From assembly GCA_008632985.1 (NCBI GenBank), contig QPGO01000285.1, positions 1 through 64,000 on the forward strand: a DNA stretch of 64,000 nucleotides. Reading direction: 5' to 3'. The notes below the pieces were generated by a model. That model made no database searches and was not told the origin of the DNA. It saw only the letters and a program-made list of their open reading frames with translations. Below, in pieces: positions 1,328 to 45,915 of this stretch. Source of the stretch: Psammoneis japonica (Eukaryota). Made by a program: the position numbers and the translations under genes. The number at the start of each line of letters is the position of its first letter. The stretch's first letter is position 1.

Positions 1328-1692
1328 GACACGTTCCAGACGCAGGCGGGAATCCGTGTGACATTGGGCCCGCAGAATTCTGCGTGCGAGCTCCGCACTA
1401 AAATCACACGGCAATTAAAATGTCAATGATCGCCAACAGAAAATGAGGCAATTTTGCGAACGCACAAACTTGCCCAGTTGCACTCTTCAGACATTGAAGA
1501 GTGCAGCTGGTGCGTTGTTGTTTCTGTAAATTCGTCACATGAAACATCTGGGGCTTCACAAAACAGCGAGTCTGGACAATTTTTTTAAAATGCCACACGT
1601 AGAAATGTGCATGCGAAACATGCGACGGATGACAAAAATTGTTTGTGTCACACGTCAGCACTGCGAGCTCCCACCCAGGGCTGGAACGCGTC
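1328..1692 (+). mobile_element. MITE (non-autonomous DNA transposon), TIR GAC(A/G)CGTTCCAG...CTGGAACGCGTC, 4-bp TSD
   Basis: Terminal inverted repeats; flanks GCGA / ACGA; an empty-site paralogue (GGGCGCGAAATGG) lies at ~903-915. Confidence 0.85.
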
Positions 1693-2499
1693 ACGAAATG
1701 GCCAAGAGCTCAAAATCGCAAAGGGTGCAAAATGGTCAAGGGCTCAAAATCACAGCCAGTGCAAAATGGCGGCAAAGGGTGCAAAATGGCCAAGGGTGAA
1801 TGAGCGCTGATGTGCTGTCACGAACATGGGCAGTTTGTGTGCTGTTGGCGATTGGCCCACTGCCGCTTGTTTGGTGGCCCCGGCAGCATGACATCTCACA
1901 ATTCCAGAACTTGTTGACGCTGTTCAACACTCTGTCTTGTCTTGCACCCAATTCTCAGCTGTCATGGTGGCATTTGCTTGCACTTTGTCAGAGCCAATGT
2001 GCTGTGATGTTCATTGCCTGGAATGGGCATTGCAAATGGTGCGACGGTGTCATTGCGATAGATTGTTTTTTGCGGCAAAGGCCATGTTGGTCCCGTGGTT
2101 GCTCGCGCAATCGCTGAGTCCTTTGCGCACATCAATGTTCATGGACATGAATGATGCGCTCTTGCAGATCAGAGCTGTGATCCGTCAGACATGATGTCAG
2201 TGGACGGTTGGCCAAGACACACAAACATTCGTGATGAAGACAACACAATGATTCATGTGTTGAGGTCTGTCATTTGACCATGTGCGTTTGGCTGACCAAA
2301 ATGCATTGTCAAATTGTTCAGACACTGTGCATGTGGGCACATGTCTGTTGGAAACCATTGCTGAGGTGTGACACCACCTGCTCGCGGGTTTGCCAAGTGG
2401 AAGCTGCCAAATTGGCATGAGAGCCACACATTTTTCTCACTTTCCTCCACTCACACAAGTGGATGCTCACACGTTGAAACGCGAGTGACTGCTCACACA

Positions 2500-4398
2500 C
2501 CATGGCCGCTGCTGCAGCCTTCACCGCTTGTCTTGTGCATTGTGGACACAGTGCACAGGCGCACACCCACACAGCCGGTCAAGGCTTTGCTGCCATTCAG
2601 GACTTGGAACAGGTCCCTTTGGCAGAGATTGCTGCCGTGACTGAGGGCCCACACAGCCAGCCAAGGCTTTGCTGCCATTCAGGACTTGGAGCAGGTCCCT
2701 TTGGCAGAGATTGCTGCCATGACTGAGGGCATTGTGAAGAGCGTGGATGCCGCCGCTGACCCCCAAGTCTGCTTCCCATGCCTGGCGAATTGCAAGTTCA
2801 AGGCACTGCGCGCATGGATTGACTGCCGCAGAGCCCGGAACCAACAGCCGACTGCTGCTCTCTTTGCTGGCAACGTCATTGGGAAAAGGACGGCACGTCT
2901 CACAGAGTTGGAGCCACTCAAGTCAGCAGACTCGGATGACGAATCGGCTTCCAAGACGGCCGCGGAACTCAAGAATCTGTGTGACTGGCCTGCCTTCCAA
3001 GAGTTGCTGGACGCGTTCCAGCCCTGGGTGGGACTCCGTGTGACATTGGGCCTGCAGAATTCCACGCACAAGCTCCGCAGCACAAGAATTTGATCAATGG
3101 ACACATTTGTCTTCAACATCAAATGAACGGCCAAGTTTGTGGTGCAATTGCACCTCTTGCCACTCAACGTTTTTGCAAATGCACCTGCACTGCACGATTC
3201 TTAAGACATTGCAGAATTGCGCTGCAACAAAACATGTCAAAAGTTTTTGGACGGATCGCTTGACAAGTGCACCGTAAAATGACACAAAATGTCAAAAAAT
3301 CACATGGAATTCTACGTGCGTGACATGCAACGAGATTCAAAAAACTGTCGATGTCACAGCTCAGCAGTGCGAGGTCCCACCTGGACCTGGAACGCGTCAC
3401 TGGAGACCGAACTGTGCCACCACCACAGTGCAGTTGCCGGCACACCCCTCATCCACTCAATTGGGGAGCACGAAGATGTCACTGCCAAAATGTTGGCTGC
3501 CACCTGCACTGCCATTGACGAACACCTCATTGCCACTGCTCGACTTGCAGGAGCTCAGCATGCACAGGATGGGCAACGCCTGCATGACCTCTTGAAGAAG
3601 TCAGTGACAGGGGGGCCCAGATGGGCTTTTGTCAAACCTTCCAATCGCAATCATGATGGTTGCACTGCTTTCTTTGCACTCAAGAGGCAGGCAGAAGGAT
3701 CGGCTGCCGCCACTGCTTGAAAGAACCGTGCTTGTGCACAGATTGCTGCTGCGAAGCACACCGGACGGGGTCAATTTACTTTCAACCAGTGCACTCAACG
3801 CCATCAAAAGGCTCACAACAACTTGTCCGAGCTTGATGAGCCGGCAGCCAAGACCAAGCAGGTCTCTGACTTTCTCAAAGGTGTCTCTGACCCCAGGTTG
3901 GAAACTGGCAAGAGTGCAGTTGACGGAGACCCGACAAAGCCAGTGGATTTTGAGGCATGCCAGCAGTGCATGAAGACTCTGGCAGAGAATGCCAAGAACC
4001 GCAATGCTGACACTCGTGGAATGGCGTCTGTCCAATGCCGCAGCAGCTGGCGTGGAAACCCTGGTGGCAAACACCAACCTAAAAAGGACAAGCCCGGGAT
4101 CAGGGCAGGCTGTCATCCTGTTGAAGAGTGGAGTGCTCTTGACAGTCCTGAGCAAGAGCAAGTCAAGAAGCTCCGCAAGGCCAAGAAAGCCGAGAAGAAA
4201 CGCAAAGCAGCAGCTGCATCCTTGGAGGCTGAGTCGGCCAATGCCGAAACTTGCGCTGTCAAGAAGGTGGCTGTTGCTGAGCCTGAACCCAAACCTGCTG
4301 ACAAACAAAAGGACTCCGAAGAGTCCAGCAAACCTGCTGCCAATGCAGGCACGCAGTTTGGATGCAGCACCCATGAGAAACCTCAGAAGGAGGAATGA
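2500..4398 (+). pseudogene. copia-1 gag remnant (split by the MITE at 3010-3398; ~80-bp tandem duplication at ~2576-2730)
   Basis: Segments WPAFQELL..., GTPLIHSIGEHE, FFALKRQAEG, KQVSDFLKGVSDPRLE resemble diatom copia gag; in-frame TGA at ~3718. Confidence 0.7.
3010..3398 (+). mobile_element. MITE copy inserted in copia-1 gag
   Basis: GACGCGTTCCAG...CTGGAACGCGTC perfect 12-bp TIR core; flanks GCTG / ACTG. Confidence 0.9.
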
Positions 4399-4479
4399 AT
4401 GGCAGCGCCAGCACTGAAAGGCATGGAGCCGACTGTTGCCAAACCTGCTGGCACCACACGTTGTTCATCCAGGCAATTC

Positions 4480-6890
4480 TCAAAGGATGTGCACATCTCT
4501 TTGTCATTTTCTGGACATTCAGATGGCAAAGCAACCAATGATTTGGACTCACACACTGACACGTGTGCTGTTGGATCCAATTTTGCAATGTGCTCTGACG
4601 TCATCACCCCTGAGATGGGAGCCTTCTGCTGATGCCATGGCACAAAAGGAGGAAGCGCACGCACATGCTGGTGTGCGCCAGCGATCATTGAAGTCTGATG
4701 GACAGGCAACAATGATGAATGTGACCAGGTGCATTGCTTCAATTCATTCACATCAAATGTCTCATCATGAAGAGAACGTCATTGTGGACACTGACGACGA
4801 CAATTCTCTGCATCACCGCCTGGTTGCTCAGGTGAATGTCTCCCACAACGACATTGAGGGAGACGGGCTGCACGACCGGCATGACCCAGATGTCCACCCG
4901 GACTGCAGAAATGGGTGCATGCACTGTCAACCTTGAGTTGTGCATCGACTGTCACACCCGAGATGCTCTCCAAGAGGTGGAACATTGGCCTGACGGCCGC
5001 TGAGAACACCCTTGGAGTGATGACCCAGGCAGGGGTCTGCAATGTCTGCACACCATCAGAGCGGAAAGTCTGGAAGAAAGCCCCCTCTGGCCAGATGTTT
5101 TTGAAGGTCAAATCGATGTGTGGCAAGACAGGAGGAAGTGCACTTGCCAACGGAAGAGGGTGTGACAGGTTCTGTCCTTGGAAAAGGAAACAGGACCACC
5201 CGAATGCCGTCATGTCATTTGTGCATGACGTTGGTGCACCGCAAGTCCTTGTGTCGGATGGCGCGCCGGAAATGGCAGAAGGCCAGACCAAGGACATTTG
5301 CAAGGAACACAGGATGCACCAGGAGGTGTCCACCCCATGCAGCCCCTGGCAGAACCTGGCCGAGGCATCCATTCCTGAGTTGAAGAAGAGAAAAAAAACT
5401 CGAAATCCACTTTGCCGCTGCCTCGCTGCTGCCCACACCAACACCGACCACAGCAGACCCACACCCCCCAGTGCCCACAAAGGGCAGCAGGGACAATTTA
5501 AACACCGTTGAATGTTGTCAGAAAGACAGTGCCATTGGCGCATTGTCCGAAGGCAGCACCGTTAACACATCGTCAGAAAGAGGCTGTTTGTTTTAAGTCA
5601 GAATGGCAGCTGACCGGATGCTTGTTGCATGGCAACCACAGTTGCTGTGCCTCAAAGAATGGACAAGCCCAGCCACACCACTTGGAAGACACCAAAACAA
5701 ACGCTGCAGAAAAACCAAACATGTGTCTGTCTTCAAAGACAACATGCTTGAAGAGATGTGAGAGAGATTCCTGGGATGAAAAAACACCCAAGAAAGTCCA
5801 ACACGGACCCCAACGAAGGAAAAGGAAATGATGTTCAGAATTGTCGGATGAAATTTCCGTCATGCATGGAATTGTGCAGAAATTGTGTGCTGAAGTTGCA
5901 ACATCGAAGAGCATGAAGAAGCAACACCGAGACTTGGAACTGCGAACCACTTGGAAGACTTGTGACAACCCACTTTGGAACACCGTAGAACATCCATCAC
6001 ATGTTGCAGCACATTGGAGAGAAAACTCAAAGGAAGCATGTTGGTGAGAAGAACAAGAGGATGAACCTCACATGGTTGTCGACTTGAAATTCTGGCCAAA
6101 TGCGTGGAATTGCACACGAAACTTGTGCTGAAATGGCTGACTTGAAAATTGCTGAATCGTGCAGAATTTAATGCAGAAAACATGCTGACATTGGGAAAGA
6201 AGTGCAAAGAGATGCAACACCATGGCGGCGCTGCTCCCCCGGATGCAGACAAAACAGAGTGTCCCCTCCGATGTCTTTTGGTTTCTCTGTCATTGGCACA
6301 ACTGCCTGACGCCCCAAAGTGCCCGAGGAGGTTGGCACACCACCACACTCTCACACAGGACAATCCCACGGGCGCTTGCGTGGAATTGTGAGTTGAAGAA
6401 GAGAGCCCGCATGACTCCACGCCGGACTGGCACTCACAGGTGACTTTGGCCCCAAAGTGCCAAATGGGCATGTGATGTCCGATGCATGATTGCAACTGTC
6501 ATGTCAGACATGGGAGGACGAGTCCCAGAAGAAGAGGTGACAGGTTCAACACCCAATGTTTCGTCCCTCTCTCTCTCTTTGATTGGCATCAACCTGTCCA
6601 CTGTTGCATGCCTGTGGTGGAGTTCCCACATGAGAAGAAGTGCATCGGCCGTTGGCTCAGAGTGGCTGACAACTGCACTGACAATGTGGCATTTGTTGTC
6701 CTGCCCGAATCAGGCAGACCCATCATTCGGAAAGATGCACGGGCCATGCCGGAGGATGACCTTAAAACTGTGGCGATCCAAACAGATCTTGCATCAGTTG
6801 ATCAGGCTTTGATCAAACGGCTCAACATCCTGGAACAGGGCGCCAATGCTGACTTCCCTGAACTCCCTGACAACTTCATGGACAAATGAT
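4480..6890 (+). pseudogene. copia-1 protease + integrase remnant (interrupted at 5392-6388)
   Basis: LDSHTDTCAVGSN (aspartic protease motif), VTPEMLSKRWNIGL, VGAPQVLVSDGAPE, PCSPWQNLAEASI, FPHEKKCIGRWL. Confidence 0.8.
5392..6388. mobile_element. Unclassified ~1-kb insertion flanked by a 16-bp direct repeat
   Basis: TGAGTTGAAGAAGAGA at 5376-5391 and 6389-6404; integrase homology stops and resumes at these repeats. Confidence 0.65.
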
Positions 6891-6899
6891 GCGATGCTG

Positions 6900-8600
6900 T
6901 TGAACCCGTGGAACCTGACTCTTCCAAACCAGAAGCTGATGAGTGTGCCCCGGAGGGGCTGGATGAACACCTCACAGCTCAAGTCATGTTGCCACGAGGA
7001 GGCAAGCTGACTCATGCCAGGGTTGTTGCACGCAAACGAGATGGCGGCGGGGCTCCCATTGGTGCTGGGAATGCCTCACAGCTCAAGTCATGTTGCCACG
7101 AGGAGGCAAGCTGACTCAAGCCAGGGTTGTTGCATGCAAACAAGATGGCGGCGGGGCTCCCGTTGGCGCTGGGAATGACAACCCTGTCCCAGACTCGAGG
7201 ACATGCAATGTGGAGTTTCCTGATGGATCCACTGATTCCTGTGCTGCTGACGCAATTGCAAAGAACCCATTTGCTCAGACAGACTCTGAAGGGAATGCCT
7301 GCCAGGTTGTGAAGGAGACAGTCGATCACCGATGTGATGCCCGTGCCGCAACGGCTGATGACGGGCACACAATGACTGAGACTGGCAGGCGTGCTCCCAG
7401 GAGGATGACGGCAGACTGGGACCCACAAGTCAAATGGAAGGATGGGACTGCATCCTGGGCTCCCCTCAAAGATTTGAAGGAATCCAATCTAGTCGAGGTT
7501 GCTGAGCACGCTGTGGCAAACGAGGCAGCCAGCGAACCAGCTGTTGACTGGTGGGTCCGAGACATCTTGCATCGCAGGTCAAGGATCCTGAAGAAAGTCA
7601 AGTCGCGTCACTGGAAACGCACGCACAAGCTCGGAATTGAACTCCCAAAATCTGTTGAGGAAGCTGTGGAAACAGACAACAGAGTGAGGACTGACTTCAG
7701 GTTCAAGGCTGTTGAGGAGGAAATGCGCAACATCATGCCTGCATTTGAGTTCAGCGATGATGACACTGCACCGGTCGGGTGCAAACACATTGATTGTCAT
7801 GTGATCTTTGACATCAAGAGTGCCCTCCAACGCAAAGCAAGGTTCGTGGCCAGAGGCCATCAAACCAATCCACCCAAGGAATTGACTTGTTCCAGTGTGG
7901 TGTCGCGTGACAGCACTGGGATGGCATTCACTGTGGCAGCTCTGAATTGCCTGGAGGTCCTGAGTGCAGACGTTCAGAGCACCCACTTGAACGCACACAC
8001 TGAGGAAAAGTGTCATGCTGCTGCTGGCCTGGAATTTGGGAAGCACAACAAGGGAAGGCCGGCGATTGTTGTCCGAGACTTGTGTGGTCTCAAGTCTTCA
8101 GGTGCAAGATTTGGGGAACACATGGCAGCCACTTTGCGCGACACTGGGTTCATGTCTGCATGTGAGCTGCGGTTGAGCCGGACGGCTTCAAGCACTGGGA
8201 GTGCATGCTTGTTTGCGTGGACGACTTGTTGTGCATCTCCCATGAACCTCAGAAGGTCGTGGATCATGTGAGCTCCAGGTGCACACTCAAGGATGGAAGT
8301 GTCTGCGAGACGGAAGAGCACTTGGGCGCCCAGATTAGAAAGCACCAGTTGTCTGAATCGGACGGCGAGACATGCTGGGCTGTGTCCTCTGACCTTTGTG
8401 TCAAAAGGGCATTGGCTGATGTTGAGTTGGAGCTCAAGAAAACTGACAGGCGCCTTCTGATGAAGGCGTCAACGCCCTTGAGCTTGGGACACAGGCCTGA
8501 ACTGGATGGCTCACCTGAGGTGAACACCAAAACTGCCAGCTGCTGCCAAGGCCTCATTTGTGTGCTGCGATGGGCAGTTGAGCCAGGGCCCACTTGGCAG
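6900..8600 (+). pseudogene. copia-1 pol: pre-RT region + reverse transcriptase remnant (RNase H apparently deleted)
   Basis: VKWKDGTASWAPLKDLKES, KSRHWKRTHKLGIELPKSV, RKARFVARGH, TCSSVVSRDS, ADVQSTHLNA, LCGLKSSGA, LVCVDDLLCIS (YVDD read as CVDD); ~104-bp tandem duplication at ~6970-7175. Confidence 0.92.
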
Positions 8601-9321
8601 TGCCAGGAGTTGTCCTGTGGTGAGTCCCAAAAGGGGACAAACCGAGCAGGTTTGCCCCGCAGGTGCATCTTTTCCCACCCCCAGAATGAAAATGCCGCCC
8701 TGGGACGGGGCAGCATCAGGTTGCATTTGTCCATCAATCTGGCCCAAGCGGAGCTGGCATCAATTCAAGGGGGCTGAATGAATCCTGACATGCTGTCACG
8801 AACATGGGCAGTTTGTGTGCTGTTGGCAATTGGTCCACTGTCTCTCATTTGGTGGCCCTGGCAGCGCAGCATCTCACAATTCTGGAACCTGTTGATGCTG
8901 CTCAACACTCTGTCTGGTCTTGCACCCAACCATTGGCTGTCATGGCAGAATTCACTCAAGGGCACAAAATCACAAAGGGCGCAAAATCACAAAGGGCACA
9001 AAATGGCCAAGGGCGCAAAATCACAAAGGGCAAAAAATCACAAAGGGCACAAAATGACCAAGGGCACAAGACAGCCAAGGGCTCAAAATCACAAAGGGCA
9101 CAAAATGGTGGCAAAAATCACAAATGGCACAAGATGGCCAAGAGCTCAAAATCACAAAGGGCGCAAAATGGACAAGGGCGCAAAATGGTGGCAAAGGGTG
9201 CAAAATGGTGGCAAAGGGCACAAAATTGCAAAGGGTGCAAAATGATGGCAAAGGGTGCAAAATCACAAAGGGTGCAAAATGGCCAAGGGCGCACAACCAC
9301 AAAGGGTGCAAAATCACAAAG

Positions 9322-9717
9322 GACAGGTTCCAGCCCCAGGTGGGACTCGGTGTGACATTGGGCCCGCTGAATTCTGTGCTTGAGCTCCACAGCAAATTTG
9401 TGCTGCAATGAAAATGTGAATGATCACCAACAGAAAAAGAGGCAATTTTGCGAGCACATCTCCTCTTTCATGCTTGGAGCACATCATTGGCAGTTGCCGG
9501 GGTGTGTTCTGCAGACATTGAAGAACATGCCCAGCGCATTTTCATTCTCACAAATGTCGAAAATGGAGAGCCTCTGGCTTTGCAAAACAGGGAGCATGAA
9601 ACAATTTTGAAGAGTTCAGCAAGTGGAAATGCACGTGCACGACATGCAACACGATCCAAAAAACCATTGATGTCACAGTGCAGCAGCACGAGGTCCCACC
9701 TGGAGCTGGAGCACATC
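9322..9717 (+). mobile_element. MITE copy
   Basis: GACAGGTTCCAGCCCCAGGTGGGAC...GTCCCACCTGGAGCTGGAGCACATC; flanks AAAG / AAAT. Confidence 0.85.
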
Positions 9718-10659
9718 AAATGGCGCAAAATGGTGGCAAAGGGTGCAAAATCACAAAATGGCACAAAATCACAAAGGGTGCAAAATTGCAAAGGGTGCAA
9801 GACAGCCAAGGGCTCAAAACTGCAAAGGGCGCAAAATGGCGGCAGAGGGGGCAAAGTCCCAAAGGGCGCAAAATGGCCAAGGGTGCAAAGTCCCAAAGGG
9901 CGCAAAATGGCGGCAAAGGGTGCAAAATCACAAATGGCGCAAAATGGACAAGAGCTCAAAATCACAAAGGGGGCAAAATGGCTGAGGGCTCAAAGTCACA
10001 AAGGGTGCAAAATGGCAGAGCAAAGGGTGCAAAATGGCCAAGGGCACAAAATCAAAAAGGGCTCAAAATGGTGGCAAAGGGTGCAAAATGACGTGGGGCG
10101 CAAAATCACAAAGGGTGCAAAATGGCAGCAAAGGGTGCAAAATGACAAAGGGCACAAAATCAAAAAGGGCTCAAAATGGCGGCAAAGGGTGCAAAATGAC
10201 AAAGGGTGCAAAATGGCGGCAAAGTGTGCATGATGACAAAGGGCACAACATCACAAATGGCACAAAGTGGCCAAGGGCGCAAAATCACACATGGCACAAA
10301 ATGACCAAGGGCGCAAGACAGCCAAGGGCTCAAAACCACAAATGGCGCAAAATGGCCAAGGGCGCAAAATGACAAAGGGTGCAAAATGGCGGCAAAGGGC
10401 ACAAAATGGCCAAGGGTGCAAAATCACAAAGGGTGCAAAATGGCCAAGGGCACAAAATCACAAAATGCGCAAAATCACAAAGGGCACAAAATGACCAAGG
10501 GCTTGAGATGGCCAAGGGCGCAAAATTGCAAAGGGTGCAAAATGGCAGCAAAGGGCGCAAAATCACAATGGGCAAAAAATGGCCAAGGGTGCAAAATCAC
10601 AAAGGGCGCAAAATGGCGGCAAACGGTGCAAAATCACAAAGGGTGCAAAATGACAAAGG

Positions 10660-32505: not shown

Positions 32506-32519
32506 TGCTGTGAAGGACA

Positions 32520-35350: not shown

Positions 35351-36599
35351 CAAGCCAATCCTTTTTGGATCAGCGCACCAGCACTTTTGCCACTGTTGCA
35401 GATGCCGCCAAATCTCCAGCCGGATCTGAGCCAAAAATGCTGCTGTTTCCGAGCAAAAAAATTCCATCTTTCAAAATCAATCTTGTCTGGGGTGGCTGCT
35501 TGAGGAAGAGTGCCACATGGCAAACAATGTTCATCAAAAGCAGCACCCAAATGCAGATTCATCACTCACCCTTTCATTCCAGCCAATGCTGCATCTTGAC
35601 TTTGCACCAAGATGGAAGATGGGAAATGGGGGGCATGGTGCCACAAATGAAGCCAACCATGGAATTTTTTCATGCATGACAGGCTTGTGATCTGCATCTT
35701 CAATGCCACAAAAATGCAACAAGACAGTGCACCTTGCACTCATTTTTGCTGTTGCTGCACTCTTCTCCTCTCTTCTTTGCTTCTCTCTTGTTGTTGCAGC
35801 AGCAACGGGGTTGCTTCGCTCCCCCTCTCCCCCCCTCTTCTTCCGTCAGCACCCCCCCTGTTTTCCCTGGTGGTTGAAGGGTTGACATCTGAGGCCCGCA
35901 GAAAAGGCCTTCAGTCACATGTCACTGAGCCCCACCATCTCATGGCATGCACGCACGCGCCTTGATTGGAAGGCCCCACTCCAGATTGAAGTTGACGCTT
36001 GCTTGTTGGAAAGACAACATTTTTGTTCATTCTCAATTTGCAGATTAGAATGTCAGGCATTTGTTGTGCCACGACACATTTCATTTAATTGACATTTGTT
36101 GACTTGTGCGCCAAAATGCCAAGTCACACGGCACTGTCATTCCCTCAACTGAGGACAGTTGCATTTTGTTCCAGCTGAAAAATGTTCATTTTCATGTTGA
36201 ACAAGGCACTTTTGCCAAAATTTCTGCATCTCCGTCTTCATGATGGATGTTGACAATTCTGCAAAATTTTCCACCCTTTTCTGCTCTCCCCCAAAACCCC
36301 CTCCTCTCCGCCAAATCACAATCTTTCATTTGCGCCGTTCCCCCGAGCGATCCTGTTTGGGGCATTTGTCCCTTCTGCTTGTGATCCACAGGTCCAATCC
36401 CCCATGGTTTTGGCGAATCTGCGCAGAGCCGTGAAAGCAGCATGACAACAAGTCCGTGGTTTCTGCGTCCTCTGTTCATGCCGCGATGGCCCATGGCAGT
36501 GTTCCTCTCCTGCTGTTGCGACCATGGCCCATTGCAAAGTCATGCCCAAGCAAAAGCAATGTCTCTCTTCTGGCTCTGAATCATTCGGGGATGCCACCG

Positions 36600-39500
36600 A
36601 GTGTGCCACTCACCCATCGCACCACTTTGTCACGTCTCCAGACCATGACGGCTTGCTTGATGACATCATTCAACATCATCCAACGTGGAGGCAAACCTCT
36701 CTGATGACTTCAATCTCAGCTCTGATGACTGCTCCAGTGGCAACGACTCGTCTGCTCAAGGCAATGATCACGCCAGTGCACCGTCTGCATCCAGAGACCT
36801 TGACGGTTGTGCCAGTGATCTTTCTTTTCCCAACAAAGACGATGTGGGTGCCGATTCTTTAGACGGAAGCGATGTCTCTGTTCTTGACGACCATGCCAAA
36901 GTGTGCACAAATGGTGTTGACGGTGCCTGCATGACAAAGCCCCAATTTAAAGAAATCATCGAGACGCAGCACTGCCGCCAGAAGTTCATCGAGACTCACA
37001 ACTGGACACCCTCCGCTGACCTCATTGCCCTGCCCTTCATTTGTCACAACTGCCAGAATTGAGCCTCCCATTTCTTCATGGAAGTGTTGATGGTCAACAA
37101 CATGGTTGTTGCCCATTCTCTTGGCCACAAAGATGGCTTTCATTGTGCAAAAAGCCGTGGCTGGATTTGTTTTTGTCGCAAAGATGGGAGGCATGTTCTG
37201 GAGTGCCACAAGCTGGCCGAAACCATTTCCAATCTTGCCCGATTTGGAAACATCTCCATGCAATCATTGATGATTTACACGAGATGACAGTGAGCGAACA
37301 AATTGGCAACGACCCATGCTTCCTTTGGCTCCACAGCTTCAGATCCAAGTTGGATTTTTTTGCGCAATGCCTGAGCATCGCTGCCACCACAATGGACTGT
37401 TGCTTTCTCCCTCATGTTGATGAAGAGTTCGGCAATTTTTGATGCTGGTCGACCATCATTTTTTCCAGCTGCGAAAAGAGGAAACAGTTCGTTCTGTTTT
37501 GCAACAATGTTTTGACCCTGATGAGCATGGGACAGAAGTTGAAGGATGGGAAGGTTGCCAAGAAGATCCTTGCCGATCATCTGGAATGTGTCAAGGTTTG
37601 CGTCGACACTCATGCCATGGCGAAAGGCATGGCACAAAAACACCAAGAGTTGGTTGAGCGTGAGCTCCATTCCACCTTCAAGTGTTCCTACAAGGACATG
37701 AATCGTCTCAAGTTCCGCAACCTGGCAATTGTGCGATCGCGTGTCCACGATCTCACGCATCCACACCTTTCCCGTGTGGCAAAGGCAAAGTTTGTTTCTT
37801 CCACCAAGAGGAGGAAGAAGAGCAAGGATTCCTCCAGTGTGTCTGCTGGTTCTCTGGCACCTCTGCCCCCTTCATCCAAGAAAGAAACCAACCGGAATCC
37901 TGTTGCTCATCCAACCGGCACCATGGCCAATGCCCCACCATCCGCCAAATGCCACATGAGTGCACTGGCCTCCCAGTTGCAACCTTCGGCTGAAGACAAA
38001 GTCGAGGCGTTGTTGGACGGAGAGTTGTCGTCGTCGGGTGAATCATCAACTGAAGACCACCCCATCCAGAATGTTCCCGACGCAGGTGCTGTGGGTCCAT
38101 CCACGGGAGGAGTCACTTCTTTGGCATCTCCATCAAAGCCAAGCACATTGGCCAGCACCACAACTTCCTCATCAATCGACGATCGGTTCCCCCGTGGTCA
38201 TTGTCGCCGCTTTGTGTCCCTTTCTGATGTCTCTGGGCATGCTCCTTGTGTTTGCATCATTTGTGATCCAGGTGACGATGACGATGACAACAAGCAATCT
38301 GCCAATTGTGAGTTGAACCTGCATCATTCTCCAGCTGACTGTCACTTGCTCGATGATCTACGACATCATCTCCACTCCTTTGTGATGACGCAACCACTTC
38401 CTTCTGCTGCAAATCATGGCCGGGAGCTGGTGGTTGTCCCACCCAGAGCTCAACGTGTTCAGGATGATGCCGCCATTTTGCACTTGTCCTCCCGTCTTTG
38501 GCAGAAACACTTTGGATCTCTCCAAGTTGATGTTGGCATGATTGCCCATTTTGTGCTTGAACATGGCCATTCCAATCCCAATCGTGATGGGAAGATCATG
38601 CGCTGCAAGAAAAACAACGTAGATCGGTCCAAGCAGCCAGACAAATGGGACTGGATCGATTTTGGCTGCTGTGGTTGGTCTCACAATGTGCTCAAGAATG
38701 GCGGGAAAGTCCCATCACTGCAAGTCGGTTTTGGAATTTTTGAGAAAGAAAAAAACGTCGTCATCCGCAATCAGATTAAGTCCATGCTTGCGGATGTGCA
38801 CGATTCCATGCAGAGGTGCCATGGTGAGCTGGAGACAGAGCACTTTGGCAATCCTTGACCCCACAACAACACCACAAGAACTGCAATGTGTGGGGCCGCG
38901 CTTCACACTGGGCTGGGTTGCAAAGCAGCAAGGAATGAGCTTGGCACTGTCCAAGTTAAGACAATGCCTGATGGTGTGCAGATTCATCCAGACAAGTTGG
39001 GGAATGTCGTTTCTGTCAAGTTCCTTGCCAACAGCTGGAAACGCACGGGTGAACATTTTGACCAGCATCTGACGTCATTGCCGTTGAAGACAATGATGCT
39101 GAAGCATGTCACAGCCACAAATCGCGCATGCAAGGAGTTCTCTTTGTCGCGCAAGGGTCCTCATGGTCCACCAATGGATTTGAACCACCGCCATCCCAAG
39201 AACATGTTTCTCGATGATCATTGCCCACACAAGGAAAAGGCACTCGACAAGGCTGGTTCGACTGTCATGGACAGGTTGGAGTTTCCCACCTCCTGCATTT
39301 GGGATTTGTGGTTGTCAATGGGGATCACCATCCTGCTCTGACTCTGAGATGTGCTCGGAATCCACAAGGTTGTCAAGATTGCAATCATGGCTTCTTGTCA
39401 GACTGGATTCCACTGGTTCTTCCACATCGGCATGGAGCACAGGGACGAGTTGACTGAACTCAGTTCTGATCCTGCACTTGTCTGCTGTCAACTGGGCATG

Positions 39501-40770
39501 AAGCTGTTTGGCACTGCCGCTGGAGACGCAGGAGTTGCTCCACGCCGTCTGAACCCCAGTGGCTGCAGTTTTGTTTTCTGCTTTGAAAGAACTGGAGTGG
39601 CCGGGGAAGACCTGGGTGATTTGGAAAATCAAGATGCAGCAGCAGAGGAAAACAAATGTTCTCAATCCCCAAATGATTTTGGCTCAGATGTTGACAAGTT
39701 GGCGGCACAACAAGAATTGAGTTGTCCTGAGGATGAGAGAGGCATCCCTCCCAATGGTGCCAACAAACACTGTGACTCTGAATCACCGGACTTTGACGAC
39801 ATGACGGAATCACCTCAAGAGAGCCCAGATCTCTCAGCGCAACCAAAGAAAACAAAGGTGTTGTTTTTGTGCATGACACAGACAAATGACATTGATTCTC
39901 TGTCATTCACAAATGTGCTTGACGACATCAACGACGACTTGTTCAGTGGAAATTCCAAACTGAGATCCGACGTGACAAGGATGCTTGCCTGTTGTGACAC
40001 GGTGCTTGATGCAACCAACTGCACCATTGATTGTGAACTTTGCACAGCTTCTCTGAGCAACGGTCACAACGCCCATCACATCAACTGCAGCGCATGCAGT
40101 CCTGCATTTTGCAATGAGGTCATCACAAAGTTCGGAAGCGACTTTGAGGAAAATCAACTTGGATTGCTTTTGGCCACAAAAGGGTTGGTTGAGCGACAGA
40201 TTCAACCCACGCTTCTTCTTCGGCAGGACATTGCCTGAACTGTCAAATGCAATGAAAGTTGGCTGGCGGTGCCATCAGCATCCTTTTTGATGTTGAGACA
40301 TTTCTTTCCCATGTCTTGCACGAGGAGTCCATTGTTGAAATGCACCGCGCCCTTTTTCCGAAGGATGTGCGCGTCCTGTTGCACGAACCGCACCATTGCA
40401 GCTGTTTCGATGATGAACAGTGCAAACAAAAGCTGAGTCTAGATCATGCACACCAGGTGAACAAATGCCTGGCCGGTGTTGCAAGCAGCAAAGTTGGCCA
40501 GTCGGTTCCAGAACCTTTTTGCCTTCAAGCCGAAGAGGTTTGGAAGTGGCTGAGCAACGAAAACCACCACATCAATCTTTGCAAATGGACAGTGCCACTT
40601 CAGCTGGCATTCATTGGACACAGAAATGGCACAAAACACGTTGAGATGGCAATCGCAGTGACAACCAATGAAAAGTTGGAAAGATGGTCAGACACAAAAA
40701 CACGTGAGGCAACGAGCTGGTTCCTCACAAAGAGCAGCTCCCCGCCAATGATTGAGCCACATTGATGCAT
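36600..40770 (+). pseudogene. Large degraded multi-domain gene (>1,300 codons) of probable transposon origin
   Basis: Chain of long same-strand ORFs (36685-37062, 37078-37287, 37512-38858, 38886-39341, 39351-40238, 40259-40765) joined across TGA stops and small frameshifts; Cys clusters; methyltransferase-like segment near 40150-40290. Confidence 0.55.
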
Positions 40771-40989
40771 GTCGAGTCAAACGATCGTCCCGTTGACATG
40801 CCTCATCAAGTCACGGTTGCAGCTTTTTGCAGGTGGAGAACAGACGTGTTGCGGGGCATGCAAATGCACACCTGTGTTGTCAAAGGCTGCCAATGAGACA
40901 GATGGAAGACAAGGCAGGAGATCATGCCTTCGTCCATCCAGAGTCAAATCCAAATTTATGTTGAAGTCGTGCAACCAAAACTCCATTGC

Positions 40990-42651
40990 GCAATGATCGT
41001 TTCGACGCTCCTCAGGGTGCATCATGTGCGGATGCGAGAGAAGAGCCTCTGCAAGCTTCTGTTGCCACTTGAGGCAGCCATCCAATGGACTGTCCTTGCT
41101 GAATGCTGCTGCAGCAGAGCCGGCCCATCCAAGTGCTGGCTTGTTGAGACAGGGAACAATCTCCACATTGACTGGAGAACAAGAAAGACCAAGCTGATTG
41201 GTTTGGCAGGATGTGTTTGCAACATTGTTGGCGGGACACATGCAGAAGTGATGCACTCAACCGGCGCCACCACCATTGGATGATTTCCGTCCACAGACAA
41301 AGTCTTGTGACTTCTGGCCACCAAACATTGGCCCTTGCACAAGTCGGACACGCATGCACCGGCAAACACCACCCAAGTTTGCCATCATGAGGGGAGGCTC
41401 TGCCTGCAATGCCTTCAAATCTTCCAAGAGAAAAGACAACATGTCATGGTGAGCCTGCATGTTTGATGAACACGGGGGCTTGCCCGATTGCATGTCTTTG
41501 TTCACATTCCCGTTCTCATCAAGTGCAGCAACCGCACCATCCTTGTCTGTGCTGGGCATGAACCCCAGGTGATGCCAGGCGCAATCATGCTCACGCACAT
41601 GCCTCTTGGCAAGAAGAATGCAGAACAACCAGGTAATGAGGGGACACCTTTGACAGGCATCAGTCCCTGTCTGATCAGCGCACGAGGCGATTGGCAACAG
41701 CAAGTCCTTCTTGCAGTCAAAGTCACTGGGGAGGGCATCGCATGTGTCAGAGCACCATTTGTTGGACATGATCTCACCAAGATCACAGTCGTTGATGGGA
41801 ACGCACTTGTGGAAACGTTCCTGCAGGGACTTGTTCTCATTGAGATTGTGCTCGTTGTCAAACATCGAGTGGGCGAGCAAATCTCTCAACATGTCCAGCA
41901 CGCGGAAGCAAGTGACTTCCTGCCCACCAATGAGGCGAGTGTCAGGCTGGGGCAGAGAAACCTTCTCATGGAGTTTCTTTGCCAACAAGTCACGCCCAAG
42001 ACACTGGGAACAATCAAATTTCCGCTTCTTGCTGAACCGGCGCAACAGGGTGAGCAACTGTCCGCAGAATTTATGAGTGGCGCCGGAATTGTCACACAGT
42101 GCAATCAGCTCCAACGAGGCCTCCTCCAACAGTGCAAAGGTTGGCGGATCAGGTGCATCCCCGTGCAAGGCATCGGAGTTGGCATTGCTGGTGGTGGGGA
42201 GGACGCCAGGGGGTGGATCCTGGGGCAAAATGGATTCTTCACATGCACCCACCGGGGAAGAATGCAAAGAACCGGCAGGAGGAGTGCCAGGGAACATTTT
42301 GTAAAGAGAGGAATCATCATTGTCACCCACGTTGTCATCACAATCCTCTTCCTCCTCCTCCTCCTCCTCCTCAGATTCTTCATTGGGGGGGGGGGGGGGG
42401 GGGGGGGCGTGGGCTGCGGATTGTCCATTTGCGGGTGGGAAACTGTGTGAGTCATCATCTCCATTGAGGCCCGTGCTGGGATTTAGTGCTTTGTCATTCT
42501 CAGGTGCAGAAACGGATGACTGACAAGCAATTTGCTGCTTTCGGAACACAAGAACGGCGGCTTGCAACATCTGGCACAATCGAGTTGTGGCAGATGCACT
42601 GGGGTGGGCTGCATTGTGCAAGCGGTGGTTGCGACGGTGGGAAACAGGCAT
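40990..42651 (-). pseudogene. Plavaka-type (CMC/KDZ-related) transposase remnant, 3' truncated
   Basis: LLLPIASCADQTGTD..QRCPL..WLF.....RHVRE...AWHHLGFMP, HHDMLSFLLEDL..LQ, GGQKSQDFVCGRK..NGGGAG*.HHFCMC match my recollection of the Plavaka transposase core, with Y->C/H and R->stop changes. Confidence 0.75.
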
Positions 42652-43599
42652 GCCAAGCTAAGAGGGCCATTGGAAATGAGAAACGCAAAGATGCAGGACA
42701 AAACAATTGGGTGCTTGTTCACAACCATTTGTTGGCGTGCGTGTGTTGGATTGTTTTTTGAATCAAATTGTTGAGTGTGCACCCTGCTGACTTTTGAATG
42801 GGAGACACTTGGTGTGGTGGCAATGGCCGTTGGAGAGTTGGCCACAGGGAGGCAATTGGACATGAGGGCATGCACACATTTGGAAATTAAAGACGGCATT
42901 TTTGAATTGGGGAGAGGATCTGTTCAAATTTCAGTGCAAATGTCCAGCCAAACAAAGAAACATTGGTGAAAGACACTGTTCAGGTGAGCAGAAATTTGTG
43001 CTTGGAAATGGAGAAGGATTGCCGTCACCCACACGTGGTCCACAAGACTGGCCACATCCATCAACATGCTTGCAGCAAGTGCACATGAGCACACACCAGA
43101 AATGAAAACACAGCGGCAGCAGCAAGGACAATGGCGCATGTGGAGCAGGAGCTGAGCTCAACCGAGTGGATGGCGGATGAGGCAAAGGTGGTGGAAGACA
43201 CAGCGAAGGTGAGAGATCATGCAAAGGAAACATTGTTCCTCAGTGTGACACTCACATTTGATGAAAAGGAAATGGAGGAAATGGGCATGCTCTGCTGAGA
43301 TTATGAACAGAACTGCGGCCCCAAGATGATGCATGGCCTGCTGAACGAATTGCCCGAGGCAGAGCAAAAAACATGCCTGCACCACCTGTGGCTTGCGATG
43401 AAACAAAAAAAGATGCATCAGGAGTGGCCAGCAATTGAGAGGTTGAATGCATGCCAGGCGCAGCAGGACAAGTTCCACGGTGAGTGATGACGGAGGGTGA
43501 AACGAGGACAGCAAATGTGATTGCTGACGTCGCGTTTCCTGCCACAAATGAAGCTCTTTGTGCATGCTGCAATGAGAACAATTGCATCTTGCCATTGCC

Positions 43600-44500
43600 G
43601 GAAAGATTCCAAGATCGCTTGGGAAACCCGGTTTTGCAGATGGTGTTCTACGACCACATGCTGCGTCCGATTGTCAGAGACACACGCTGGAAAGAGTGCA
43701 TTTCCAGGAACAAGAGGATGGGCACAGCGTGCGCCGAGGCGTTTGCCCACATGCTCCTCAAGAACAACTGCGATCCATGGCATGCCAAGTGCAAGAGCCA
43801 AAACAAGGACAGGACTTTGATGACGGACTGCGATGTGGAGTTGGCTGATGATGGAGGAGGCAAGGACTTGTGCGAGATGATCATGCCAGACATCGTGACA
43901 GCCGAAGAGAGGGACGGCCAGGACCAGAGCAAGTTTGTGCCACTCCAGAAAGATCCACAAGAAGAAGAGATGTTGCAGGAGGAAGGTCCATCAGTGCAAG
44001 AACTGAAGCAGAAGTTTGAGAACACAAGGGAAGAGTCCGTCACAAAACGTGACACCATGGCCAAGAAGACAAGAGAAGAGCCAAATGCTGCACTGCAAGT
44101 GACGGCTCTGAAGAAGGCTGCAGAAGTGCTCGTTGCCATCCAAAATGATGTGGGTGCATCCAGCAAAAAGAGAAAGGTTGTCAGGAACCTCGAGCATTTC
44201 ATGGCGGCAAAGCCAAAAAACTTGGACAGAAACGTGGGACCGAGGAAGTGCAAGACACTGAGGAAGAGCAAAGGGCGGTCACCAAAGGCTGACAAGTTCT
44301 TTGTTGACATGGTCAAGGAGATCAAGCAAGATGTTGCAAGCAGACACCTGGGCCGATGGGAAGAGCTCCCACAGAGCCGTTGCGACCAAGCAAGATCAAC
44401 AGGCGGCAGAAGAAGCGTGGGACGGCTCGGACAATGAAGATGACAAACAGGTCAGTTGTGCTGAAGTGTGCGAACTGGAGTTGGTGGTGGTTTGGTCAAG
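43600..44500 (+). pseudogene. Transposon accessory ORF divergent from the Plavaka transposase
   Basis: FYDHMLRPIV...WK...EAFAHMLLKNNC..W followed by a coiled, basic tail; head-to-head with the transposase. Confidence 0.5.
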
Positions 44501-45229
44501 AGCAACTCAGCAGCCATGAATTGCAATTGCAGCCATTTGAAGTCAATTGCAGCAGAGACATGCAACAAACGGATGGGACCACGGAAAACACTGTTTGAAC
44601 ACACCAGTCAACCCATTGACTTCAACCGTAAAAATTGGAAACAAATCAAAACACAGCATTCGATCATCACCCAGTCGGCACCAACAAGAAAAGTCAAATC
44701 CAACAAAGCAGCTGGTTTGGCATCATCGACTGATTGGGTGGCACCCCACTTGCTGGGGTTGACAACTGTTTTGGAAAGTCCACGGACATTTGTTGGTTGG
44801 CGTGGACATTCATTTGTTTTCAATCATGGCCATTTGTGGCAAACAGTCGTGACTCGCATTGAATCGCTTTGGTTCATCACAAGTGAGCACATGTGCGGGC
44901 TGTCACGTGTTTTGTCACCAACAATGTCCGTTGGCATGACCACAAGACAATTCATGGAAACGGGCCTCTGACGGAGTCAGCCATGAGAAAAATGCCATGA
45001 CCATCATAGAAAATCTGGGACACCCGGCATTTTGTTGTGTTTCAAGACATGCCTGTTTGCACGAGACTCCTTTTGCAAGAACCACATGTCTTTGAGACAT
45101 TCGATGTTTGTCGAAGACAATTTTCGAGAGACACACACATTTGATGCACACACAATCAATGTTTGAAAATTCAGTGCATGCTCTTTCAATGCCAGCACAC
45201 ATTTCTGCGATGCGATTTAATTTGGCGAC

Positions 45230-45388
45230 TCTCCATTTGTCGCAGAGACAAATCTTTTTTTTGTCTCCACTTTCTGTCGGCAGAGACAAATTTTGTTAGA
45301 GACAGCCGGAGACAGATGGAGACAAGACAAATGGAGACGGAGACAAAACAGATGGAGACAACAGAGACAAATCGAAATGTGCACAGTG
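45230..45388. repeat. Subterminal GAGACA(AA) direct/inverted repeats ending in CACAGTG (probable CACTG-type transposon end)
   Basis: About 9 GAGAA/GAGACA-type motifs plus inverted TTTGTCTC, then CAGTG. Confidence 0.55.
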
Positions 45389-45592
45389 CACACACAGCAC
45401 CCACACAGATGCTGCGCCATGGAGCACATGACGATCTGCCTCCAGAGAGCAGAGAGAGAGAGCTGGCAGGCCTGCCGTGCTGCAGAGCAAAGGCTGGGTG
45501 TCGCAAGACCTTGATCCGCTCTCCATTTGGCACTGAGCCGTGATGCACGTTGCTTCAAAATGGCGCTGACATGACAGTGGGAACTGCTCCAG

Positions 45593-45915
45593 GACGTGCT
45601 CCAGTCCCAGGTGACGCACAAAATGACAATCGATTTTGAGTGCAATTTGTGTGTCTTTTAGTGTGTGCAGCATTTTTGCACAAAATGCTCAGATGGATTT
45701 TGACTTTCACAGGCTTCCAGAGCATGAACATTTGAGCAGTTTTTTGAGGGGTGTTCAAGTCCTCATGGGGCGTGCATCACAAACTTCCTCAGCAGACTCA
45801 ATGCTGATTGTGCGTCAGTGGATGTGTGCTGAGATTTCTTTGCAGGCAGAAAACCCACCAAGCAGAATCGTAGAAAACATTGTTCAGGTGACATCCAAAT
45901 GACGGCAATGTTTTC
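45593..45915. mobile_element. Partial inverted copy of the 10660-11217 element, at the domain boundary
   Basis: GACGTGCTCCAGTCCCAGGTGACGCACAAAATGACAATC... is the reverse complement of ~10895-11217. Confidence 0.85.

Follow-up and report, generated by a model that had tools for sequence, protein, structure and literature searches.

A TpA-depleted repeat domain in the diatom Psammoneis japonica whose surviving TpA sites show a graded flank bias

Fungi and animals are both known to hypermutate invading DNA in a targeted way: in fungi RIP introduces C>T changes, and in animals APOBEC and ADAR enzymes act. RIP, a process of ascomycete fungi, converts C to T mainly at CpA, creates TpA and lowers GC content. 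The first report of a counterpart aimed at TpA and yielding A:T>G:C dates from 2026 and concerns one chlorarachniophyte, Bigelowiella natans. Its mutation-accumulation lines had 231 single-base mutations within two integrated viral regions, of which 230 were A>G or T>C, all of these at TpA (10.64898/2026.01.13.699255), and its genome contains clusters of 1-kb windows that are poor in TpA, rich in CpA and TpG, and enriched for reverse-transcriptase and DDE domains (Mettrop et al., 10.64898/2026.01.13.699255).

Here we analysed a stretch of 64,000 nucleotides from P. japonica (contig QPGO01000285.1, positions 1 to 64,000; hereafter the window), in which ~95% of the TAs in 46 kb of satellites and defunct transposons have been converted to TG or CA (Table 1). 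Positions 1-45,900 hold 101 TAs in all (0-8 per 1-kb bin), with none in 1-1000, placing the start of the domain at or before base 1. The strand-symmetric rho in the domain is 0.04 for TA, 0.44 for CG and 1.70 for CA/TG, compared to 0.64, 0.99 and 1.10 in the adjoining gene region and, for a set of 62 related copia loci, 0.67, 0.99 and 1.13, while the other seven symmetric dinucleotide classes range from 0.89 to 1.30. As none of the 62 related loci has a TA rho below 0.46, TA depletion is not a property of the copia family. Per kb, the losses of TA (39.7) and CG (40.2) are matched by a gain of 78.6 in TG/CA, and GC is the same in domain and control (0.50 vs 0.50). At the right edge, TAs lie at 45871, 45917, 45964, 45984 and 46003, and beyond these the density is ~43 per kb; the transition is thus less than 150 bp wide, with the domain ending between 45,871 and ~46,000. 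Summed contig depth is 5462 at 45342-46008 and drops across this edge to 175, then 49; the boundary of the depleted domain is thus also the edge of repeated DNA. Within the domain, satellites and non-retro repeats are as depleted as retroelements (no TA in 9001-11000, a 17-bp satellite area), and the 32.0-35.3 kb segment is TA-depleted, yet near single-copy depth. The first copia remnant, aligned to 1359-aa polyproteins with E 7.5e-113, retains an integrase trace (4885-5508) and RT/RNase H (6282-8699) as weak matches to rve and RVT_2, whereas family searches assigned none of the multi-copy elements of 36000-45900.

Table 1. Coordinates of features in the window
Feature	Position	Strand	Remarks
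TpA-depleted, CpG-poor, TG/CA-rich repeat domain	1-45900		extends past left window end
Sharp right edge of depleted domain	45871-46003		normal TA density regained within ~100 bp
Dead copia-type retroelement remnant 1	4565-8699	+	frameshifted, without Tyr
Dead copia-type retroelement remnant 2	29147-31316	+	tblastn with 20 full-length homologues
17-bp satellite, unit AAGGGCGCAAAATCACA	1-1010	+	no TA
Other 17-bp satellite arrays (AAGGGCGCAAAATCACA)	8958-9322, 9717-10660, 11215-11427, 15862-16166		no TA
22-bp satellite, unit TCAAGGAAAACAACCAGTTGTT	23049-24741	+	split by 390-bp element
Second 22-bp satellite array (TCAAGGAAAACAACCAGTTGTT)	31694-32507		
~390-bp repeat family, least-mutated copy	12405-12796	+	6 surviving TAs
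~390-bp family, other copies	1335-1692, 3010-3400, 9326-9717, 23654-24048	+	
~390-bp family, other copies	11724-12120, 14851-15247	-	
422-bp tandem repeat	20050-21032	+	2.3 copies
Multi-copy elements, unclassified	36000-45900		summed depth 268-5462 vs ~50 for single-copy DNA
Long open frame in 36000-45900 block	37443-38855	+	
Long open frame in 36000-45900 block	41260-42657	-	
Ordinary gene region, internal control	46001-64000		TA rho 0.64, CG rho 0.99
DNA polymerase alpha	51963-56041	+	two overlapping frames, control region
FtsJ-like methyltransferase	56755-57666	-	control region

The initial annotation of this sequence had proposed that the few surviving TAs betray a mutator preferring TA followed by a pyrimidine, and the sites it named all exist (1399 CTAA, 1416 TTAA, 3202 TTAA, 5499 TTAA, 7490 CTAG, 8336 TTAG and 24845 TTAG, the last noted there as ~24853). 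Among the 101 survivors, 64 are YTAR (TTAA 29, TTAG 20, CTAA 11, CTAG 4) and 37 have one favourable half (GTAA 12, GTAG 7, CTAC 7, TTAT 4, TTAC 3, ATAG 2, ATAA 1, CTAT 1). None is RTAY (ATAC, ATAT, GTAC and GTAT each 0 of 101, where the annotation had called them essentially absent), although base composition predicts 25.3 and flank-conditional frequencies predict 20.2. TTAA and CTAA/TTAG do make up most survivors, but CTAG, also thought to be favoured, does not stand out (4 seen, 5.5-6.4 expected); likewise, a purine follows the A on both strands in the 64 YTAR sites, but the supposed binary pyrimidine/purine split gives way to a graded bias, the base 3' of the A being A in 109, G in 56, C in 29 and T in 8 cases when both strands are pooled. 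The YTAR/one-sided/RTAY distribution of 64/37/0 differs from that in 46,001-64,000 (140/369/212 among 721 TAs; chi2 = 102, p = 6e-23), and the 16 NTAN tetramers, which the annotation had wanted compared between domain and genes, are not equally depleted. The ten strand-symmetric classes differ as well between domain and gene flank (chi2 = 143.5, p = 2e-26), as does the domain from the 14,104 TAs of the 62 copia loci (2554/6952/4598; chi2 = 147.6, p = 9e-33); for about four survivors the site is shared between two repeat copies, which leaves the result unchanged. At +2, A is found in 52% vs 26%, and the bias reaches +3 too: TAAA (61) and TAGA (33) survive, as opposed to TACC (1), TATT (1) and TATA (0), such that TAYY fares worst and TARA best.

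To describe this gradient, we fitted to the 16 NTAN counts a destruction model in which the A of each strand is lost at a rate set by its own 3' base, with baselines that are proxies for the ancestral sequence. The fitted survival per half-site is 0.50-0.56 for A, 0.30-0.32 for G, 0.11-0.12 for C and 0.03 for T, with relative loss rates T > C > G > A of about 5:3:1.6:1, and a second baseline returned the same parameters. The deviance is 23-25 on 12 df, a residual misfit that includes over-prediction of CTAG (8-11 vs 4) and under-prediction of TTAG (12-15 vs 20), compared to 172-175 for the null and 35.3 for a steady-state model. The TG/CA products share the flank bias of the survivors: YTGY, which has a common origin with RTGR in YTAY/RTAR sites, gained 31.1 per kb vs 13.3 per kb for RTGR, CpG decay also adding to TG classes with a 5' bias of its own. 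Tyrosine codons of the copia remnants point in the expected direction (7 Cys/5 His after Y, 5 Cys/10 His after R), but not significantly (Fisher p = 0.26). The annotated preference for TA followed by a pyrimidine is thus borne out, context-dependent destruction providing the best fit and the products agreeing with it. Because the loss rate follows the 3' base and a pyrimidine at +2, RRTAYY-like sites have disappeared and YYTARR-like ones (TTTAAA, CTAGA) are still present. The gradient may stem from how readily a base flips out where purines and pyrimidines alternate, and not from recognition of particular bases.

As TpA is palindromic and the data are symmetric, an A target in TAY and a T target in RTA fit identically, and the survivor, model and product counts can equally be read as a 5'-purine preference (ATA > GTA > CTA > TTA). 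The target could in that case be the thymine in 5'-R-T-A, which a TET/JBP-type enzyme, for example, could oxidise to 5hmU/5fU, or which could carry some other bulky modification, the modified T pairing with G and leading to T>C; 5-formyluracil is established to miscode as C. One domain ORF gave a sub-threshold lead (score 0.89) to Plavaka transposases, which travel with TET/JBP genes in fungi; however, this lead failed in Pfam and a homologue search gave one unnamed match. We know of no modified T in diatoms, and a literature search found no paper joining 5-hydroxymethyluracil, dinoflagellate and TpA. The only study of a TpA signature we are aware of proposes adenine deamination, as a hypothesis (10.64898/2026.01.13.699255). 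We consider a thymine target unlikely here.

The flanks would be uninformative if all old TAs were gone and the present ones had arisen anew from C>T at pyrimidine dimers (YCA>YTA; TGR>TAR), in a UV-like manner befitting a photosynthetic cell. Such an origin predicts roughly 50% YTAR, 50% one-sided and 0% RTAY sites (seen 64/37/0) in the order TTAA > CTAA/TTAG > CTAG (seen 29, 15.5 each and 4), and, with TG+CA at 212 per kb, C>T at a few percent would be enough. At four parameters each, however, creation alone fits worse than destruction (deviance 48.4 vs 25.0; logL 131.6 vs 143.3), predicting 9.5 ATAA, 5.3 ATAG and 8.3 TTAT where 1, 2 and 4 are seen, and it leaves both the A excess at +2/+3 and YTGY > RTGR unexplained. 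Moreover, at least three surviving TAs of the 390-bp family are ancestral, since other copies hold both TG and CA there, and new formation thus appears improbable.

The direction of change is seen most directly in aligned copies. Among copies of the 390-bp family, TA, TG and CA coexist at single alignment columns, and each non-satellite kb of the domain holds TG and CA in about equal numbers. When the two copia remnants were compared to their homologues, none of 34 conserved Tyr positions was kept: 15 had become His (CAY), 12 Cys (TGY), one Gln (CAA), one Trp (TGG) and five other residues, so that 29 of the 34 codons are single-transition derivatives at the TA, whereas for most of the remaining conserved residues the share retained is 52-85%. 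Within 9 bp, changes to His alternate with changes to Cys. TpA loss therefore acts on both strands, at the DNA level, and consists of nearly nothing but A:T>G:C at TpA (TA>TG or CA) within sharply bounded mobile and repeat DNA (copia remnants, satellites, repeats), as described for B. natans-type hypermutation. CpG decay is a second process, separable from TpA loss: it happens without TA loss, as CG rho is <0.5 in 7 of the 62 copia loci, whose TA rho is 0.46-0.79. These same loci speak against error-prone repair, by which T:G mismatches from 5mC deamination would recruit polymerase-eta-like patch synthesis with its hotspot at the A in WA. The CpG decay of the domain (rho 0.44) would make mismatches frequent, and in somatic hypermutation polymerase eta leaves A>G at WA as its signature, but WA includes AA, which is undepleted here (rho 1.21-1.30), and there is no rise in AG (0.93-0.95), making this route very improbable.

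TpA loss is real mutation. Read-derived contigs of run X1, which stem from one sample that is possibly the source of the assembly itself, differ from the TA-poor sequence at 1-5 positions over 344-452 bp at a depth of ~50, the same as genes, and 996 of 4875 contigs are at least 99% alike to the window. Long-read assemblies are known to contain systematic miscalls at modified motifs, and a modified base at TpA might be misread by sequencer or base-caller with the TAs still present in the DNA, all the more as reads and assembly possibly share a sample. Yet the contigs repeat the TA-poor sequence, including its local TG/CA mix, at gene-like depth; strand-specific misreading would produce all-TG or all-CA reads rather than outcomes alternating within 9 bp; and copies of one repeat carry different outcomes, leaving such an artefact hardly credible. 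ADAR-like editing of double-stranded transposon transcripts, reverse-transcribed back into DNA, could draw on the two retroelement remnants and on the ADAR preference for U before the edited A (PMC10661471), but we give it next to no credence, as it would leave a one-strand A>G mark and has its hotspot at UAG (PMC10661471), whereas here TG equals CA, with Cys and His outcomes interleaved, satellites and short non-coding repeats are depleted to the same degree, and TAG, with 56 of 202 half-sites, survives comparatively well.

In light of these comparisons, we favour, with a probability of about 60%, a near-saturating, repeat-confined and flank-graded TpA transition hypermutation of a repeat island at the DNA level. 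The left 45.9 kb is a putatively silenced island of two dead copia elements, unclassified multi-copy elements, the 390-bp family and two satellites, to which an enzyme that targets foreign DNA or silent repeats, like the one suggested for B. natans, may be recruited. A strike on the top-strand A would turn TA into TG and one on the bottom-strand A would turn it into CA, with ordinary CpG decay adding the same products alongside. The data show the TpA loss together with its direction, two-strand action, confinement and flank gradient. The mutator is limited to the repeat or heterochromatin block, ending within ~100 bp of unique DNA, and its rate of A loss rises with the 3' base in the order A < G < C < T (about 1 : 1.6 : 3 : 5), and further with a pyrimidine at +2. 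As to the chemistry, we infer as the likeliest course, if at slightly less than even odds, that an enzyme deaminates adenine in DNA to hypoxanthine, which the following round of replication reads as G. On a broader and rather speculative view, diatoms and chlorarachniophytes, perhaps SAR at large, may share a RIP-like defence that writes duplex TpA by means of a heterochromatin-directed, base-flipping enzyme, through conversion of A to hypoxanthine or oxidation of the paired T. An intermediate may be a mark on TpA that is symmetric in the manner of CpG, for example N6-methyladenine, which would be deaminated much as 5mC is to T, and flank stacking may set its efficiency, RRTAYY being easy and YYTARR hard; if so, the flank fingerprint would be an enzyme signature recognisable in any genome.

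A saturated footprint in a diatom suggests a wide occurrence of this process in major marine algae. For transposons the consequence is the removal of all Tyr codons and two of three stop codons, and TpA mutation would offset the GC loss from CpG decay and shape algal repeat landscapes. The graded preference TAT > TAC > TAG > TAA, worse with a +2 pyrimidine, is a falsifiable fingerprint with which genomes can be scanned, and a specification for any candidate enzyme in vitro. A natural mutator of DNA adenine (or thymine) that acts on both TpA strands, perhaps in duplex, within a short context would also be of interest for base editing.

Akin to TadA, ADAT2-ADAT3 and adenine base editors, whose A-to-I chemistry produces exactly A:T>G:C, the process strikes TAC, the second most depleted half-site, which recalls the natural U-A-C site of TadA at A34 of the ACG anticodon, with U before and C after (review table in PMC10661471). 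The annotated likeness to a TadA-type adenine deaminase is not supported by the context, however. The order of depletion is TAT > TAC > TAG > TAA, TAT being more depleted than TAC; TACG, the motif natural to TadA (14 survivors, TACA 11), is spared relative to TACC (1) and TACT (3), baselines being similar; and a T-in-RTA target fits equally. BjADAT2, described as the natural ADAT2 demonstrated to deaminate DNA adenine, prefers 5'GAA (PMC10354150), while in the domain only TA is depleted, and the editors ABE7.10, ABEmax and ABE8e are reported to be broadly compatible with A contexts, the 5'T restriction concerning C (PMC10354150). No deaminase family was found among the scanned window frames of at least 120 aa, and TadA/ADAT2 enzymes work on single-stranded loops, whereas here the two strands of a palindrome are hit equally. 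That the mutator belongs to the TadA/ADAT2 family is therefore doubtful. ADAR hyperediting, performed to our knowledge by animal enzymes, resembles the domain in A>G change and in U/T preferred before A, but it acts on dsRNA with a UAG hotspot, as opposed to DNA, both strands and a TAG that is spared relative to TAY. With fungal RIP the domain has in common a repeat-confined hypermutation with sharp edges at repeat boundaries and one dinucleotide context, which killed transposons and left a dinucleotide-skewed block adjoining normal genes. The direction is opposite, however: RIP changes CpA to TpA and raises TpA and AT, whereas here A:T>G:C destroys TpA and GC stays at 0.50, and the 32.0-35.3 kb segment, depleted near single-copy depth, gives no sign of a dependence on duplication.

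The closest precedent is the 2026 B. natans preprint, in which likewise only TpA is struck, giving TpG or CpA by strand, within sharply bounded silent or foreign DNA (10.64898/2026.01.13.699255). B. natans is a chlorarachniophyte and belongs to another supergroup lineage than the diatom. Its live target is a single-copy giant-virus insert with a TpA rho of 0.45, compared to transposons and satellites at 0.04 over at least 46 kb here, and its mutations were scored de novo (10.64898/2026.01.13.699255), whereas the diatom domain is known from its accumulated footprint. The main text of the preprint makes no mention of flanking context (10.64898/2026.01.13.699255), and the flank fingerprint is newly described here. 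Judged by this comparison, the diatom domain looks like the same kind of process, carried to saturation.

The sequence from base 1 to about 45,900, hereafter the domain, retains 101 TA dinucleotides (0-8 per 1-kb bin), while most kilobases of the adjoining gene region carry 26-67. The strand-symmetric dinucleotide ratio (rho) in the domain is 0.04 for TA, 0.44 for CG and 1.70 for CA/TG, the other seven symmetric classes lying at 0.89-1.30; the same three ratios are 0.64, 0.99 and 1.10 in the gene flank (46,001-64,000), used as internal control, and 0.67, 0.99 and 1.13 in 62 related copia loci from metagenomes, used as a second baseline. GC content does not change across the boundary (0.50 on either side). 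The domain ends abruptly on the right, and single-copy read depth resumes exactly where TA returns, while the left limit lies beyond the start of the window. Part of the domain is near single-copy depth (at a likeness of at least 90%) and is as depleted of TA as the rest. Pfam searches of the 136 open frames of at least 120 aa in the domain returned weak rve and RVT_2 traces, the remainder being at chance level, and relaxed Pfam thresholds applied to nine long frames gave no credible family. The right 18 kb holds ordinary eukaryotic genes, among them one for DNA polymerase alpha with DNA_pol_B, an exonuclease domain and a zinc finger; all named homologues among its best matches are diatoms, including Astrosyne, Nitzschia and Chaetoceros, with identities of 66% (Seminavis robusta), 65% (Attheya), 63% (Cyclotella), 62% (Thalassiosira) and 62% (Bacillariaceae). 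The organism is accordingly taken to be a diatom.

Positions and properties of features in the domain and in the gene region beside it
Feature	Position	Observation
~390-bp repeat family		seven copies in domain
Two TA-rich ~390-bp copies	12405-12796, 1335-1692	6 TAs in one copy, 5 in another (domain 2.2/kb)
Dead copia-type retroelement 1	4565-8699	
Frame matching copia polyproteins	6967-8268	1359-aa homologues, E 7.5e-113
Single N	21078	
Dead copia-type retroelement 2	29147-31316	
17-bp satellite, 22-bp satellite, 422-bp tandem repeat		tandem DNA in domain
Near single-copy stretch	32.0-35.3 kb	
Adjacent TG<->CA double changes	33599-33600, 33777-33778	single-copy depth; seen against sole covering read contig
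Multi-copy block	36-46 kb	summed contig depth 268-5462 (genes ~50)
Open frame	37443-38855	ESM Atlas: no usable match
Open frame in multi-copy block	41260-42657 (-)	Plavaka transposase lead dropped: ESM Atlas language-model score sub-threshold (0.89), no Pfam confirmation; homologue search, 1 unnamed match, 69% identity over 36% of query
TAs at right edge	45871, 45917, 45964, 45984, 46003	then normal density
Contigs of read run X2	46.3-49.4 kb	confined to this part of window; depth 164-625
Open frame adjoining boundary	46591-49137 (-)	~820 aa, GC-rich (0.67), acidic repeats; no Pfam family
DNA polymerase alpha	51963-56041	two overlapping frames, 51963-54869 and 54845-56041; at most one interruption
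Interruption in DNA polymerase alpha	54842-54869	either short intron or assembly frameshift

The depletion is the outcome of mutation, and is neither a matter of base composition nor an artefact. The copia frame of the first retroelement contains no Tyr among its 434 residues, compared to 2.4-4.8% in homologues. Across both remnants, 34 positions are conserved as Tyr (Tyr in at least 60% of four or more homologues) and none is kept: 15 have become His (CAY), 12 Cys (TGY), one Gln (CAA), one Trp (TGG) and five something else, whereas other conserved residues are mostly retained at 52-85%. Ile (34%) and Met (29%) are also poorly retained, as expected from ATA codons and T|A codon junctions. In the ~390-bp family, a single alignment column can hold TA, TG and CA in different copies, and relative to the copia loci the loss of 39.7 TA sites and 40.2 CG sites per kb is balanced by a TG/CA gain of 78.6 per kb. 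Contigs assembled from read run X1 have the same depth as the genes and agree with the TA-poor sequence, showing 1-5 differences in stretches of 344-452 bp; 996 of 4875 contigs are at least 99% alike, and the differences to other copies comprise 568 transitions and 85 transversions. As the reads are from a single sample, possibly the source of the assembly and of unrecorded library type, this check is good but not independent. The two adjacent TG<->CA double changes at single-copy depth look like independent outcomes of one ancestral TA, carried by two alleles or near-identical copies.

The initial annotation had read a 5'-TAY target preference from the flanks of the surviving TAs, and the comparison of NTAN tetramers between domain and genes shows that they are indeed unequally depleted. 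Among the 101 survivors, 64 are YTAR, 37 have one favourable half and none is RTAY, compared to 140, 369 and 212 of 721 in the gene flank (p = 6e-23; 2e-26 over ten symmetric classes) and 2554, 6952 and 4598 of 14,104 in the copia loci (p = 9e-33). Composition predicts 20-25 RTAY sites, and the reported near-absence of GTAC, ATAT and GTAT/ATAC is confirmed. The YTAR survivors are TTAA (29), TTAG (20), CTAA (11) and CTAG (4), the last of which had been listed as favoured and falls short of the approximately 6 expected. When half-sites (the A of TA with its 3' base) are counted on both strands, A is followed by A in 109 cases, G in 56, C in 29 and T in 8; rather than following the proposed binary rule of a purine after A, the effect is graded and extends beyond one base, with A at +2 in 52% versus 26%. 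TAAA (61) and TAGA (33) are the commonest surviving half-sites, while TACC and TATT occur once each and TATA never.

Three four-parameter models were compared on the 16 NTAN counts. The best fit (deviance 25.0; null models, 143 and 172) was obtained with destruction of ancestral TAs in which the 3' base determines how fast each strand's A is lost. Its parameters were unchanged on the copia-locus baseline (deviance 23.0 versus 175 for the null), where survival per half-site is 0.50 for A, 0.32 for G, 0.12 for C and 0.03 for T, implying destruction rates of approximately 1 : 1.6 : 3 : 5. Uniform creation of TAs balanced by 3'-base-dependent destruction reached a deviance of 35.3. A UV-like alternative, in which the survivors are new TAs made by C>T after a given 5' base and destruction has no preference, fits worse with the same number of parameters (48.4), and predicts 9.5 ATAA, 5.3 ATAG and 8.3 TTAT sites where 1, 2 and 4 are observed. 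The products offer an independent check and are biased in the same sense as the destruction model: at a YTAY/RTAR site, a hit on the TAY strand leaves YTGY and a hit on the TAR strand leaves RTGR, and these two classes rose by 31.1 and 13.3 per kb, respectively. CpG decay feeds both classes with a bias of its own (TCG decays most, GCG least), and when it is allowed for, the TA-derived ratio of YTGY to RTGR is still roughly 2:1 or more. The Tyr codons, which test this directly, shift in the same direction without reaching significance (p = 0.26): Cys outnumbers His 7 to 5 where a pyrimidine precedes the codon, and His outnumbers Cys 10 to 5 where a purine does. We consider it probable (approximately 0.7) that the flank preference of the mutator is real, RRTAYY sites being struck fast and YYTARR sites slowly, which supports the proposed TAY-type preference and refines it to a graded order.

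Sequence alone does not distinguish whether the A in TAY or the T in RTA is the base lost. Deamination of adenine to hypoxanthine in DNA would yield the observed transition, and is the chemistry we would favour because it produces exactly this change and is the hypothesis put forward for the one case where the signature has been observed live. The speculative link to a TadA-type enzyme is weak and the attribution is not supported, as TAT is lost more than TAC, and TACG, the TadA motif, has 5-14 times the survival of TACC or TACT at similar baselines; the sparing of TACG might be caused by a methylated C at +1. BjADAT2, the natural ADAT2 with demonstrated editing activity on DNA, favours GAA when it acts on A and TCG when it acts on C, and ABE7.10, ABEmax and ABE8e have broad context compatibility for A (PMC10354150); the target here is TA and not the GAA of BjADAT2. 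The hotspot of ADAR is UAG (PMC10661471), whereas TAG is spared in the domain. Since the best targets alternate purine and pyrimidine, the rate may depend on how readily a base flips out of the DNA duplex. The domain has a little less TC/GA and a little more AA/TT than the controls. CpG decay there also depends on context, with the heaviest loss at TCG and almost none at GCG (fitted survival according to the 5' neighbour of C: T 0.41-0.48, A 0.58-0.64, C 0.67-0.84, G 0.93-1.03), and a 5'-T-preferring deaminase may contribute to the loss of TA and of TCG alike. Repair synthesis of the polymerase-eta type is an unlikely source, because the AA dinucleotide is untouched in the domain and because strong CpG decay goes together with normal TA in 7 of the 62 copia loci.

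The arrangement of the products points to a process at the level of DNA in which it is random which strand of the palindrome is struck: (i) each kilobase outside the satellites has about as much TG as CA; (ii) His and Cys outcomes alternate at spacings down to 9 bp; (iii) depletion is equal in satellites, short non-coding repeats and retroelements. This argues against RNA that was edited and then copied back into DNA and against strand-coordinated deamination of single-stranded DNA, and the per-kilobase comparison of TG with CA revealed no clusters of the APOBEC type, large imbalance being confined to satellites. Selection against transposon target sites (TTAA or TA) is rejected because TTAA survives best. 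The two TA-rich ~390-bp copies may be younger than the rest, and if so, the process would be gradual or still active.

Searches of the full-text literature found neither TpA depletion nor A>G hypermutation of repeats reported for diatoms, and no paper combining 5hmU, dinoflagellates and TpA. Strong TA depletion was found in none of the 62 copia loci among the matches listed, which do not include the contig of the Tyr-free protein P0389; the lowest TA rho (0.46) belongs to a metagenome contig of 1589 bases (L014; CG 0.46, TG/CA 1.40) that may be a partly mutated copy. Among the best 150 copia reverse transcriptase (RT) representatives, P0343, P0386, P0389 and P0329 contain 0-0.9% Tyr and 6-9% Cys+His, compared to medians of 3.5% and 3.9%. 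These Tyr-poor fragments, which come from other public assemblies (P0343/P0391, P0386 and P0329 from Logan; P0389/P0392 from JGI), are 41-48% identical to the RT of the window, and their conserved YGLK motif reads CGLK or HGLN. The footprint is therefore present elsewhere, in other elements or organisms.

The live example comes from mutation-accumulation lines of Bigelowiella natans, in which 231 of 302 nuclear single-base mutations fell in two integrated viral regions and 230 of these 231 were A>G or T>C, all at TpA, at a rate of about 6e-7 per site per generation (10.64898/2026.01.13.699255). That genome also contains clustered TpA-poor windows enriched in transposon domains, and ADAT2 was proposed as a candidate enzyme; flanking context is absent from the main text of the 2026 preprint (10.64898/2026.01.13.699255). 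The diatom domain bears the same TpA signature as B. natans, here as a saturated footprint, and looks like a second-lineage case of a type of genome defence that has been described only very recently.
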